Positions 1,128 to 57,403 of a stretch of 64,000 nt of DNA are shown one piece after another. The position numbers and the translations under genes are program-made. Within the stretch, counting starts at the first letter, position 1; each line of letters starts with the position of its first letter. The stretch is from Octopus vulgaris (lineage: Eukaryota): contig OX597815.1 of NCBI GenBank assembly GCA_951406725.2, positions 179,242,001 through 179,306,000 on the forward strand, written 5' to 3'. The notes below the pieces were generated by a model. It did no database searches, was not told where the DNA came from, and was given only the letters and a program-made list of their open reading frames with translations.

Positions 1128-1316
1128 AACCTCGTGTGTACCGTTGGCGATTTTTTTTCCTCTGTCTTCCCTTCTCCTATGTTTCCGACGAAGAGCTCCG
1201 CTCGAAACGTTAAACCCTCCTTCTTTCCTTCTTTCCTGAGCGTCCAATAATACTATATTTGTTCCACGTCCTCGCGTTGTTGTGTTTTTTTGTGCTTTCT
1301 TGTTTGGATTAACTTT
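1128..1316 (+). mobile_element. Short HHR-bearing repeat, family A (retrozyme/PLE pLTR-like), flanked by (TA)n
   Basis: ~190 bp unit repeated at ~19660, ~28985 and ~57115. Starts CCTCGTGTGTACCG, ends GGATTAACTTT(AT)n, and contains an HHR motif. Confidence 0.75.
1181..1215 (+). ncRNA. Minimal type I hammerhead ribozyme (U4C variant)
   Basis: GTTT-CCGACGA-A-GAGC(TCC)GCTC-GAAACGTT-AAAC: stem I GTTT/AAAC, stem II GAGC/GCTC, palindromic ACGT stem III. Confidence 0.7.
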
Positions 1317-1559
1317 ATATATATATATATATATATGTATGTATGTATATATATCGAAAACGACTGTCGAAAGGAAACATTTCAAGTTCAGGATTGCATA
1401 TATGCGAAAATATTTGAGGAAAAATATCAACTTAATCGAAGTTCTGCGAAAAGCAATAAAGCCAATGTGGTAGTGAAAAAGTGGCAATATTAATGTATTA
1501 ATCGTTCGGTGGCAAAAACCGCAAAACCAGAAACTTTGAAGAATACCAACAACAGTTCA

Positions 1560-1940
1560 AAAGCTCATATTGACTGTTCAAGGTCGATTTCTCTTGAAAG
1601 AGGGAAAATATTTTTCACTTAAGCATAACACACATATAAAACGGTGGTAGGATCCATTTCTGTATAGGCTTGCTCTTTCCAAGATAGAGCAATGGATTTT
1701 GAAAGGAGCGGAATAAATTTCTTTTAATTGCCATACATGTTCTGGTAAATTCATTGATGTAATGTTTACCGGGTATTTAAAGGAGTCTTTTTGTTGATAA
1801 GATCTCGTTTTGAAGCTATTTTCGGTGGCTCCGGTGTAAGCTTACTAGTAGGAGTATTATTGACCTGGACCTTAGCCCTAAAAATAACTCTTTTGATGAG
1901 GCAATTGCCGTTAAAAGAGCTGTTACTATACAGTTGTCAA
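1560..1940 (-). pseudogene. Decayed PLE GIY-YIG endonuclease fragment
   Basis: Manual minus-strand translation gives FNGNCLIKRVIFRAKV ... YTGATENSFKTRSYQQKDSFK...LPEHVWQLKE, matching a PLE GIY-YIG pattern. Frameshifted. Confidence 0.6.
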
Positions 1941-2611
1941 TTGTAAATATTAGTATATATACTCTAGCATCCATCTCTTCTTTTCCTTTTCTTTTTCCTT
2001 CACCCAAACAGTTTATTCTCTCTTCCTCCATTTTCTCTTTTTCTCTTTTATGTGTTTCACATTCTTCCATGCCTGCAACTTCCCTTTCTTTATTAGGTTT
2101 CAGTATTAAGGCAGCAACAGAGCTGTATTCTGACTGCAAGAGATCCGTTATTATTTTTAAGATATATACAAAGTATATGAAATATTCATCAATGTACAAA
2201 TGATGCTCTGCTATGATCCAATAAGTTATATTTAAATTTTGAGAAAATTTCTTCGGATTTGTATGCTTTGAATATTGGCGATTCCAGTTTTAAAAACATT
2301 CACAAATTCAATTCTTCAGGTCTGTTCATTTAATCCTAAAAAAACCCGCTAAACTCTAACTCCCAACCCTGAAGTGTAACTTCTAATTCTTAATCTTAAC
2401 ACCATAAAAATTGATTCTCACTTTTAGAAATCTAATCTACTATCTTTAAATCACAGAATTCAGAAAATATATTATGAAAAAATTACAGTCGGTTGTGTAA
2501 TGTGAATCGGAGAGAGCGCGGTCTGGCTATAAAAAGAAGTTCCAAAAGGTTTCTTTTCTTTTGTGAATCATAAATAAATTTTCTAAAAAAGTAATAAATG
2601 AAAAAATTACT

Positions 2612-2782
2612 CTACTCATGTATATATTATTCAAATTATATACGTCTCATGTATATATTATTCAAATCATATACGTCTCGTGTATATATTATCCAAAATC
2701 ATATATACATGTCTCATGTATATATTATCCAAAATCATATATACATGTCTCGTGTATATATTACTCAAATCATATACACATG
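2612..2782. repeat. Minisatellite, ~33-36 bp unit x5
   Basis: Repeats of TCTC(A/G)TGTATATATTAT(C/T)CAAA(A)TCATATA(TA)C. Confidence 0.85.
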
Positions 2783-3354
2783 GTTTAATAGACGAACGAA
2801 AGCGTAACTGTGTTGTTATGAAGTTATTTCTGTAGCCTCATCGTTTATAATTCTCTCCCCTTAAATTGCATACTGGTAAGTGCCATTGAGTAGTCTCCTG
2901 TAGCCTTGGGTTTACCGATGCCTGTGACTGAAATATGAAAGACAGAATCTGTGTGGAATCACCACACACGCACACATGCACACTTGCATATATGAATACA
3001 TATAACACTGATAATGCATATATATATATATATATATATATATATATATATATATATATATATATATATATATATATATATATAAAAAATACTTTTGCCA
3101 CATACTGACGTTTTTAGAAATAGCAGCCAAAAAGTTTTTGGCTGGTATTTCTAAAAATGTCAGTATGTGGCAAAGTAATTTATTTTACTCAACCCTAATT
3201 ATATAATGTAATATTTTGAATACGCCTTAAATAGTCCTTTTACATACTGAACACTACTTGGTGAAATTGATTAATAACTAATTAGTTTTACCCTTAATTA
3301 TTGATATATATATTGATATATGTATGTATGTATGTATGTATGTATGTATGCATG

Positions 3355-4300
3355 TATATATCCAAAAGATGGAACAAAAACGCTACAGACGACAATAAAA
3401 TATCCGGACAGATAGACGATACAAAGACGGACAGGAAAAAAACAAAACAAGGACGGTTCATTCGCAAATTCCTCATCAGCCAGGTTACCATATTATCTTT
3501 ACAGTTTCGGGTAGTTACACTTGAGATTGTTAAAATCTGGATGTCCTACAACAAAAAAATCTAATCTAAGAGCATTAAACTTTTTGGAAGAAAGCAAGCG
3601 AATGTCTGCAACAACAAAGACAAAAACAGAGAATATGTTACACAATTACAAATACAAGCAACAAGAAAGTAACAGCATGTGTCTTTCGAATAATAAAGAC
3701 GAATCAAGTTAAGCTAGCGTGTTTAGAGTGAAAGCCTTGAGGCAGGAACATAAGAGATGGAGGTCAAGAGACAGGAATATCAGAGATGCTTCGCGGCTGG
3801 CAGTCAAGACAAGAGAGGAAAGAAAAGAGAGAGGTAGCGGGCAGAGGGATTGAGGGGGTAGGGGAAGAACGAGAAAGAGAGGAAATGAAAAGGACATAGA
3901 GAAAGATACAAGGGAGATAAACGAGGAGGAAAGGTGGGATTTAAATAAAGAGAAGGCCAAGAAATGTGGGAGAGGAGGAACGAGAAAAAGAAAAGAGGAA
4001 AGAAGAAATTATGAGGGGGACTAAAAGAAAGAGTAAAAGAGTCGTACAAAATTTAGATGCTAACTTATTTACAAGGTGAGCAAAAGTGTACGTACGTCGC
4101 TATATGTATATATAAATCCAAAAGATGGAACAAGAATGCAACAGACGACAATAAAACAACCGGACAGGGAAAACAATAAAAAGGCGGACAGGAAAAAAAA
4201 CAAGGACGAATCATTCGCAAGTTCCTATCATCAGTCAAGTTACCAAATTATCATTACAGTTTATGGCAGTTACACTTGAAACTATTCAAATCTGGCTGCC
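3355..4300. repeat. Diverged ~190 bp direct repeat pair (3355-3545 / 4108-4300) flanking a purine-rich spacer
   Basis: Both copies begin TCCAAAAGATGGAACAA...CAGACGACAATAAAA and share TCATTCGCAA...CATCAG...GTTACACTTGA. Confidence 0.7.
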
Positions 4301-55204: not shown

Positions 55205-56209
55205 TAGACATGAATTAACCAAATTCTGGAATTTGAAAATGTGTGGAGAAATTGAGAGAGCTTGTTCTCATCTATTTCGTTGCTCGTTGTGCGAGAAACA
55301 GCAACTAAGTCACACTCCGACATTTTCTATAGGGTAAGCACACATGAAGCAATGTAACCTGACCCTTAAGATAGAGGGAACGGTGACAATCCGAACAACT
55401 TTTACCCAAAGTCTGCACGGAAAGTGTGAATTAAAGGTCGTACAACAATTAAACACCAATGCAATCCATGCATATTTTGTTGATGAACTATAAATGTCCC
55501 CTGGGTAATATATTCACAGCGATGAGGAACAGGTGAATGAAATAACATTTTCTGCTGATATTCAGTAAGAATTAAGTCAAAAGTCATTTTTTCTTTAACG
55601 TAATAAAATGGGAAAACTGCTTTCTAAATCAAAGTCGTTTTTCATCAAATACTGTCTTCACTGTTTAAACTTCGCGTGCTACAGATATCTTGCTACAGAC
55701 ATATTAATATAAAGCTGTTATAAGCTTAGAGAATAATAACAATCCATTATGCAAGACTTAATAAATATGACAGTCGAAAGTTACCGCTTGCGTGACATCA
55801 CCGTAAAAACGCTATCAGTGTTGTTAACATTTCGGATACTTTACTGGACTATTGAGAAAATCAGTTCCCATAATAATTAAGGTAGAAGGTCTTAATCTCA
55901 CTGAAGACTTTCTCTCATACGCTTATACATAGCGTTAGTGATTTATTCTATGTCACAAAAATACTTGGAGAAAAGACTAAGAAGCTGTCCCGACAAGAGG
56001 TTCCCAACCTTTACTCTATCGAAGACGACTTTAATTTAAATGAATTTTCTTGCCGACCTAAATCTTTTGAAAAATATGTCTACTAAAGAAGACAGTTCCA
56101 ATAACTTAAAACAAATGGATTGTCTTACTTTTATATCCATCAACTGAAAATATATGTAACTGAATAAACAACCTCAAGTAATTTACCCTTAACAAAGATT
56201 TTAGGGGGT

Positions 56210-56910
56210 TTACAAACAGTACCAAATGCAGGTTGATACATTACAACTGTTTTTTTTTAAGTTGATAGTCAAGCCAAAATTATCACAAGCTGAGTCAAAT
56301 GCAGATACAAGAGATTGCAGACCTGTTTCAGAATGACTGACAAGATCGCAATCGTCAGCGTATAAAAGTTCACTAATGAGTGAAGTAAAAACCTTCGTTT
56401 TGAATTCCAGTCTGGTCAGATTAAAACCATTCCCTGTTGTTCGATATTTTATGTAAATACCATCCCCAGGGAGAACAGTAAATAGACATTTGTTTCTAAC
56501 TGACATCGCTTCTATTCATAAGCGCTGGGTAGAACATTTTTCTGCACTTTTGAATAAATCATCATCTGCTGACACCTTCCAGTTATAGAAGAGATGGCAT
56601 TTGAACCAACTCTAAATGACATTTATTTAGCTGTGAATAAGCTGAATAACAATAAGTCTACAGAGTCTGATGGAATCTGTGCAGAAGTCTTGAAATATGG
56701 GGGTGACAAAATGTTTGAACTCTTAAATATATTAATTTGTCATCGTTGGAGAATTGAGAAAGTACCTCAAGACTGAATTGATGACATTTTAGTCTCCTTG
56801 TATAAATCGGGGCCAAAGGGTCTGTGTGGTAATTTTCGTGGGATTTCGCTTTTGTCTGTGGTCGGAAAGGTAGTTGCCCACATTCTGTTAGAATGTTTAA
56901 ATACCTTCAT
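56210..56910. pseudogene. Two RTE-clade RT fragments in opposite orientation
   Basis: Minus: ISELLYADDC...FGLTINLKK. Plus: RWVEHFSALLN, NNKS..SDGICAEVLKYGG, CGNFRGISLLSVVGKV. Confidence 0.8.
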
Positions 56911-56961
56911 ATAGGTATATATATATATATATATGTTTCTCTCCTTGTTTTTTCTGTGTCC

Positions 56962-56997
56962 CTTTCTGGAGAAGAGCGTAGGCTCGAAACGTAAAAG
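56962..56997 (+). ncRNA. Hammerhead motif, family B (unit ~56935-57090)
   Basis: CTTT-CTGGAGA-A-GAGC(GTAG)GCTC-GAAACGTA-AAAG. Stem I covaries with family A; A6G in the core. Confidence 0.6.
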
Positions 56998-57183
56998 ACT
57001 TTTTCTATTCCTGAGCGTTATACTAATACATCTGTTTGTTTTGTACACCACCTGTCTTCGTCTTTTGTTTTTTTCGTAAACTCTCCCTATATAAATATAT
57101 ATAATTTCAATATGTGACCTCGTGAGTACCGCTGGCGATTTTTTTCCTCTGTCTTCCCTTCTCGGGATCTTTCCTTCTCCTAT

Positions 57184-57218
57184 GTTTCCGACGAAGAGCT
57201 CCGCTCGAAACGGTAAAC
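57184..57218 (+). ncRNA. Hammerhead motif, family A (U16.1G, probably inactive; unit ~57115-57320)
   Basis: GTTT-CCGACGA-AGAGCTCCGCTC-GAAACGGT-AAAC. Confidence 0.55.
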
Positions 57219-57403
57219 CCTCCTTCTTCCCTTCTTTCCTGAGCGTCCAATAATACTTTATTTGTTCCACGTCCTCGCGTTGCTGTGTTTTTCGTGTGTT
57301 TTCTTGTTTGGATTAACTTTATATATATATATATATATATATATTATTAGTGAATTGAAGAAATGGAGTTGAACGAAGATTGAACAGAAATCGTTTTATT
57401 GCA

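Follow-up and report, generated by a model that had tools for sequence, protein, structure and literature searches.

We analysed five short non-coding units that bear hammerhead ribozyme (HHR) motifs in a 64,000-nucleotide stretch of the Octopus vulgaris genome (assembly GCA_951406725.2, contig OX597815.1, positions 179,242,001 to 179,306,000; hereafter the window). Judging from their sequence, the units, i.e. four copies of a family A (A1 to A4) and one of a family B (B1), are probably solo pseudo-long terminal repeats (pLTRs), that is, 5'-truncated 3' ends of TA-targeting Penelope-like elements (PLEs) of the Neptune/Nematis type, whose coding parts lie outside the window. The initial annotation of this DNA had described them as candidate retrozymes, presumed non-autonomous partners mobilised by TA-targeting PLEs. 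The tie of the hammerhead motifs to such PLEs held, whereas the retrozyme label was not supported, given single units, a minimal hammerhead, shuffle-like folds and staggered 5' ends. Solo PLE ends with minimal hammerheads are already known, and A and B are ordinary as such; the notable part is the change of the ribozyme core at family level, to C at position 4 in A and to U at position 6 in B.

The units and their hammerhead motif

All five units were recovered on the + strand at the positions first annotated (Table 1). Their lengths span 155-240 nt, and not the ~190 bp initially proposed; their GC content is 39-46% (46% in A4), and they were counted as being of retrozyme size and composition (150-450 bp, <45% GC). 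Compared from the core to the 3' end, A1, A3 and A4 are mutually 89-95% identical, A2, a diverged subfamily, is 70-75% identical to these three, and B1 is 59-63% identical to all. The adjacency to TA repeats was confirmed: a TA run follows 94-113 nt past the cleavage site in five of five units (short and interrupted in B1), vs 1.5% of window positions with a TA run of at least 14 nt beginning 90-115 nt downstream.

The motif is laid out as a 4-bp stem I, the core C(U/C)G(A/G)NGA, an unpaired A, stem II (GAGC/GCTC), GAAA, a palindromic ACGT and the cleavage base. The window was searched with a structure-aware scan requiring core, stems and palindrome, and 40 dinucleotide shuffles served as control. 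Six sites were retrieved, i.e. A1, A3, B1 and the three pLTR copies of a coding PLE of the window (PLE1), against a mean of 0.05 sites per shuffle and no strict site in the 40 shuffles; the motifs are therefore not attributable to chance. A2 and A4 escaped the scan since each carries a defect. A fortuitous hammerhead likeness in an ordinary short repeat is hardly credible, since coding PLEs carry the same motif class at the same place and since the in-motif variants listed for the contig sets (see below) are restricted to N7, H17, the stem I G-U wobble and positions 4 and 6. In its favor, an Rfam search with A3 alone gave no hammerhead match at E up to 10, and the covariation is not significant (see below). 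For the whole window (E up to 1), only microsatellite-driven matches stood among 150 of the 230 rows.

By its sequence, the motif is a minimal type I hammerhead (min-HHR) of PLE pLTRs and not the canonical hammerhead of retrozymes. The min-HHR traits, i.e. an unpaired base between positions 9 and 10.1, a G10.1-C11.1 pair, palindromic positions 15-16 and a short helix I, are complete in A1, A2, A3 and B1, while one substitution breaks the palindrome in A4. The full helix I and the loop 1-loop 2 contacts of the canonical type I were not found: helix I has 4 bp, an unpaired A follows A9 and helix III is ACGU. The core CUGANGA (or UUGANAA) is present in one of the five units, A3; the altered cores lower the case for an active min-HHR, not that for derivation from one. 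Passages of Cervera and De la Pena 2014 (PMC4209133) describe the PLE min-HHR as a U-rich 5' side, a helix I of 3-4 bp, CUGANGA with one unpaired base, G10.1-C11.1 and GAAA-C-G-U-H. Its helix III is palindromic and a dimer is needed, with low activity even as dimers, and most of the motifs are single copies, probably from truncated PLEs.

Three further statements on the motif had been made initially. The U4C change proposed for three of four A copies was indeed found (A1, A2 and A4). Stem I covariation between families comes down to one pair (G-C in three units, C-G in one, G-U in one), without significance, as 95 of 500 shuffles show at least as much. Stem II is kept as stated, being invariant across the five units, but its loop varies solely between A and B. 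The predicted circular folds of the five units have minimum free energies of -0.10 to -0.14 kcal/mol per nt and are no stabler than shuffles (z = 0.08, 0.09, -0.9, 0.06 and 0.48; 100 shuffles each). In ViennaRNA dimer folding, the active hammerhead dimer was not the minimum-energy fold; its use therefore rests on the literature.

Unit ends and the origin of the units

The 3' ends of A1, A3 and A4 agree within 4 nt, at TA, and their 5' starts lie 56 nt (A1), 82 nt (A4) and 81-98 nt (A3) before the core. B1 begins 31 nt ahead of its core, and loose contig ends show other B sequences reaching further 5'. Truncation at the 5' side fits because the 3' ends are common and the 5' starts differ; the combination expected of solo pLTRs, i.e. 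a common 3' end, variable 5' ends and a microsatellite target, was thus found, in a small sample where two starts nearly coincide. One contig links a B end via TA to an A fragment that breaks off inside the ribozyme. Short duplications of 3' ends were seen in the raw-read run X22.

An internal control for truncation is provided by family E. A solo unit of this family shares 88.5% identity over 218 columns with the 3' end of the second coding PLE of the window (PLE2) and, as far as sequence tells, is an object of the same sort as A and B whose coding source is known. The possibility that such copies are truncated 3' ends of a coding PLE, named at the outset as the case that would overturn the retrozyme reading, was therefore shown for family E; for A and B it is the likeliest case but not proven, their coding parent not having been found.

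In the mechanism that we propose, the GIY-YIG endonuclease of the element would nick (TA)n and its reverse transcriptase (RT) would start copying the RNA at a fixed position ~100 nt behind the ribozyme and often stop after 150-250 nt. Early stops would yield solitary units that share their 3' end but differ at the 5' end, and each insertion would retain its TA run, allowing different families to nest at one spot. A lone unit would offer one cleavage site and hence yield no unit-length RNA to circularise; cleavage by its ribozyme would require a dimer, formed through the ACGU palindrome, and the ribozyme would be carried along with weak or no cleavage. Passages of Frangieh et al. 2024 (PMC11167929) report that the ribozyme of the anole Poseidon element requires protein for cleavage and that HHR-dead Poseidon mutants insert normally in vitro.

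Several observations weigh against truncation. The likeness of A3 and A4 stops at the same base and A1 starts ~11 nt later, a narrower spread than would be expected if a 4-5 kb element were truncated at random; the first 15 nt of A1 resemble the start and tail of PLE1 (96 of 2000 shuffles, in a comparison chosen post hoc). Diverged B-like loose ends overlap head to tail in X22 (16 and 20 reads, by eye). The search suggested initially, for a coding element that terminates in A or B, found none within the window or the scanned collections, and two of ten PLE1-related loci (L010 and L011) had no HHR in the scan despite available 3' DNA.

Because of the A3/A4 likeness and of the A1 resemblance to the PLE1 start, a discrete mini-element stays in contention as a clearly less probable alternative: A, and perhaps B, would be a non-coding mini-PLE of ~215-240 nt in which a PLE start/tail signal is fused to an HHR 3' end, copied in trans by a Neptune-type RT/endonuclease and dispersed as monomers in (TA)n. 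The nearly common 5' starts of A1, A3 and A4 would be expected from it, as would the motif CTCGTG near the 5' ends of A1 and A4 and in the PLE1 and PLE2 tails. RT initiation in the tail region of the anole element and non-autonomous Chlamys PLEs are described in passages of PMC11167929 and PMC8557442, respectively. The motif likeness is, however, marginal and post hoc, and the other comparisons, of the A3 5' part and the PLE2 tail, were not significant (527, 1181 and 318 of 2000 shuffles); A3 has 17 extra bases, CTCGTG is missing at that place from A2 and B1, family E yields a solo of the same size via truncation, and six X17 contigs continue upstream of 57139 by a median of 106 letters. The upstream likeness of A2 and A3 was not significant either (1120 and 252 of 2000 shuffles). 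CTCGTG lies at 29280 and 33661 (PLE1 start and tail, after TA), 60021 and 26990 (both E tails), and 1131 and 57119 (near the A1 and A4 5' ends); it is possibly a shared RT-initiation signal, although statistically marginal.

We regard as improbable that A and B are monomer offspring of non-LTR retrozymes, whose tandem masters elsewhere would be transcribed, self-cleaved, circularised and reinserted by PLE enzymes. According to the parts consulted of Cervera and De la Pena 2020 (PMC7229834) and of Li, Clavereau and Pollet (bioRxiv 10.64898/2026.07.22.740005), such retrozymes are defined by tandem units, each with a type I HHR, mostly canonical, and by highly self-paired circles. Size and low GC fit, a U4 subfamily of A exists (25% and 10% of depth in two contig sets), monomers occur in retrozyme families, which in Xenopus are related to pLTRs (same preprint, in part), and the head-to-tail overlap in X22 would agree. 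The HHR is nevertheless minimal, none of the five units forms a tandem array in the window, the predicted A and B circles are not self-paired beyond shuffles in the way reported for retrozyme circles (PMC7229834, in part), and the majority cores are altered where mutants show low activity. The B-like relative in X22 has two unpaired stem II changes, and X22 is nearly without family A. No junction from an A 3' end to an A 5' start was seen in four of four runs, which is weak evidence, as contig runs drop rare forms.

Apart from a TA-containing match of 26 nt, A and B share nothing with PLE1, which is not their parent, or with PLE2. Upstream of the A and B units, no RT or endonuclease remnant was detected by phmmer with the endonuclease domain, and tblastn with 40 of 120 homologues matched only PLE1 and PLE2 in the window. 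Pattern scans gave no hit in viral_contigs and no true copy in metagenome_contigs. The lone match in the latter (L001) lies within an apparent bacterial coding sequence and was discarded as chance. No PLE1 relative was confirmed in viral_contigs, nor in genome_contigs with a single-protein query; an alignment query in genome_contigs gave ten PLE1-related loci, in prokaryote genome records. A min-HHR was found behind the open reading frame (ORF) by scan in L006 and in L007-L009 (a tandem PLE array on one contig), and by eye in L002 and L003, where a T-rich stretch and TA follow; L004 and L005 offered too little 3' DNA for an HHR search. PLE RT-GIY-YIG proteins (P0047, P0048, P0053, P0075, P0092 and P0102) and the L007-L009 array occur in records labelled as bacteria (symbiont genomes), and these loci are likely animal host DNA in those assemblies.

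Core variants in public sequence runs

A3 words were contained in 21 of the 24 public runs listed, none of which is recorded as RNA. The region 56936-57319 was compared in two contig sets (X8 and X17) and two raw-read runs (X21 and X22). It was matched by 8,901 contigs in X8 and 609 in X17, and by seven reads in X21 and 93 in X22, out of 12.9 million each, 79 of those in X22 being <90% alike. A high copy number of A and B is plausible. The low raw-read counts speak against it at face value, but it is more likely that X21 and X22 do not come from the organism of the window; they were not used for copy number, for which summed contig depth is no measure either.

At position 4, family A has T in 25.5% (X8) and 9.8% (X17) of contig depth, which by difference leaves nearly all the rest as C. 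At position 6, family B has T in 99.0% and 97.7% of depth, with A at 0.1% and 2.1%, respectively; the G of B1 is rare in both sets, and the diverged B-like reads of X22 have T in 33 of 33. The U16.1>G of A4 is private, with T in at least 99.9% of contig depth, and the A4 hammerhead is predicted to be inactive. CpG decay alone was considered as the origin of the U4 copies, but no further CpG of the motif appears in the listed variant rows, which makes a U4 subfamily more likely.

By analogy with published mutants, the majority cores C4 (A) and U6 (B) are predicted to cut poorly. In the parts seen of PMC3088659, U4C lowers activity in vitro yet is viable in a viroid, and A6C cleaves at <0.1 per min; passages of PMC9901934 describe CUGA-turn mutants as low in activity, except for the C3-G8 swap. 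No activity test of A6U was found in the literature examined. Likewise, we found no published family in which C4 or U6 cores are the majority, in a search that covered few subscription papers and where published descriptors demanded CUGA/UUGA; the A and B motif strings are absent from the supplement of PMC8557442. Because the majority cores are predicted to be poor cutters, cleavage is suggested not to be limiting for spread.

For PLE hammerheads, the literature gives low activity and dispensability for insertion in vitro. Family A with U4 and C4 subfamilies and family B nearly fixed for U6 offer a natural comparison on whether cleavage matters for spread. As a more speculative proposal, which we consider rather unlikely, two high-copy PLE-derived families may have spread with changed cores while keeping stems, GAAA and the ACGU palindrome, the HHR acting as a structural dimerisation or RT-binding signal and not as a cutter, possibly in an ORF-less mini-PLE. 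If so, such families would escape CUGA-based descriptors and might form a large uncounted class.

Neighbouring elements and comparison with known systems

Table 1. Hammerhead-bearing units and coding PLEs of the window (positions in the window)
Feature	Position	Strand	Description
A1, family A	1129..1315	+	core CCGACGA at 1185, C at position 4; cleavage site after 1211; TA runs 1089-1128 and 1316-1336, one per side
A2, diverged A-like unit	19660..19863	+	core CCGACGA at 19742; stem I T.T mismatch; TA run 19864-19892; no defined 5' boundary
A3, longest A copy	28960..29197	+	core CTGACGA at 29058, sole canonical core among the five units; TA run 29198-29259; A4-like sequence from 28977, then 17 more bases outside the short interspersed element (SINE) back to 28960
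A4, family A	57106..57319	+	core CCGACGA at 57188; U16.1>G at 57213; TA run 57320-57344
B1, family B	56935..57089	+	core CTGGAGA at 56966; G at 56969 (position 6)
PLE1 (family D), coding PLE	29261..34089	-	inverted 5' pLTR and tail
PLE1 ORF1	32370-33683	-	437 aa, no Pfam match
PLE1 RT and GIY-YIG	30078-32195	-	CX4CxxC linker
PLE1 pLTR copies	29261-29488; 33642-33870; 33868-34089	-; -; + (inverted)	U3-A8 min-HHR in each
PLE2 (family E), coding PLE	59993..63999	-	RT-endonuclease 58% identical to PLE1; runs off the window end
PLE2 3' end	~60110-60078	-	HHR-like motif, then tail and TA run
Solo E unit	26822..27026	+	205 bp; HHR-like motif; TA runs on both sides; inverted piece 26753-26813
Family C inverted pair	57341-57737 and 58075-58471		arms 99% identical; min-HHR in each
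Family F	26385-26520	-	relative of C, 70% over 141 columns; 8-nt palindrome; A at core position 5

By linker and domain order, PLE1 and PLE2 are assigned to the Neptune/Nematis type. Both contain CGRPNCxxC, and passages of Craig et al. 2021 (PMC8557442) link the CX2-5CxxC linker, as a mark of Neptune/Nematis elements, to TA targeting. In Pfam searches of the RT-endonuclease, RVT_1 was above its cut-off and GIY-YIG 0.1 bit below. The two elements share the anatomy of their 3' ends, i.e. a hammerhead, a T-rich stretch of 45-55 nt, TA and a tail; the U3-A8 variant seen in PLE1 is also described in PMC4209133 (in part). A split SINE-like repeat encloses A3 and PLE1 together. The overlap of ORF1 with the RT frame of PLE1 contains a slippery heptamer, T TTT TTA (32409-32403, -), a candidate -1 frameshift, after which no stable fold was predicted (-0.2 kcal/mol). 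The RT N-terminus is interrupted by another frame change near 32195 (-), and the copy is therefore probably damaged. In PLE2, the endonuclease has one in-frame stop, and a 3' untranslated region with ~1.5 kb of degenerate TG repeat and a 44-bp x5 array lies ahead of the ribozyme (60560-62210, -).

A CA-rich tract of 2.1 kb (17532-19660) extends from a TA run (17502-17531) up to A2. It could be a long 3' untranslated region of A2, as in PLE2; neither a coding remnant nor homology ties the tract to A2.

Hammerhead-bearing ends of families C and F share TA nests with the other units. In the C motif the core is canonical, the stem II region spans 55 nt and stem III is an 8-nt palindrome; the inverted pair adjoins the TA run of A4 and is recent, judging from its 99% identical arms. 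A fragment with ORFs at 24935-26231, which we take to be a long interspersed element (LINE), ends at 26285-26330 with a 6-bp hairpin and an adjoining GAAAC, reminiscent of half a hammerhead, beyond which lie a short duplicated unit and then a TA run. In the passages and supplement search of PMC13282606, PLEs make up 6.83% of the Octopus vulgaris genome and ribozymes are not mentioned.

Compared with metazoan non-LTR retrozymes, as partly covered in the sources above, A and B are alike in being non-coding, of 150-450 bp and low in GC, in carrying a type I HHR, in their link to PLE pLTRs and in that monomers occur; unlike them, they have no tandem arrangement, a minimal and mostly altered core and no stable predicted circle. 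The Poseidon element of Anolis carolinensis (PMC11167929, in part) likewise has an HHR in its pLTR region and prefers AT-rich targets, but its core is canonical and it belongs to another clade, so that HHR dispensability is applied to A and B by analogy. With the min-HHRs of metazoan PLE pLTRs, as seen in part of PMC4209133, A and B share the short helix I, the unpaired base between A9 and G10.1, the G10.1-C11.1 pair, the palindromic ACGU helix III, the U-rich flank and mostly single dispersed copies; the representative motifs there have CUGA or UUGA, whereas the majority here have CCGA (A) or CUGU (B). Finally, endonuclease-bearing Neptune/Nematis PLEs, together with their copies truncated at the 5' end (PMC8557442, in part), resemble the elements of the window in that an HHR lies close to the 3' end, in their (TA)n targets, in inverted 5' pieces and tails of 30-40 bp, and in the CX2-5CxxC linker of the coding neighbours PLE1 and PLE2.

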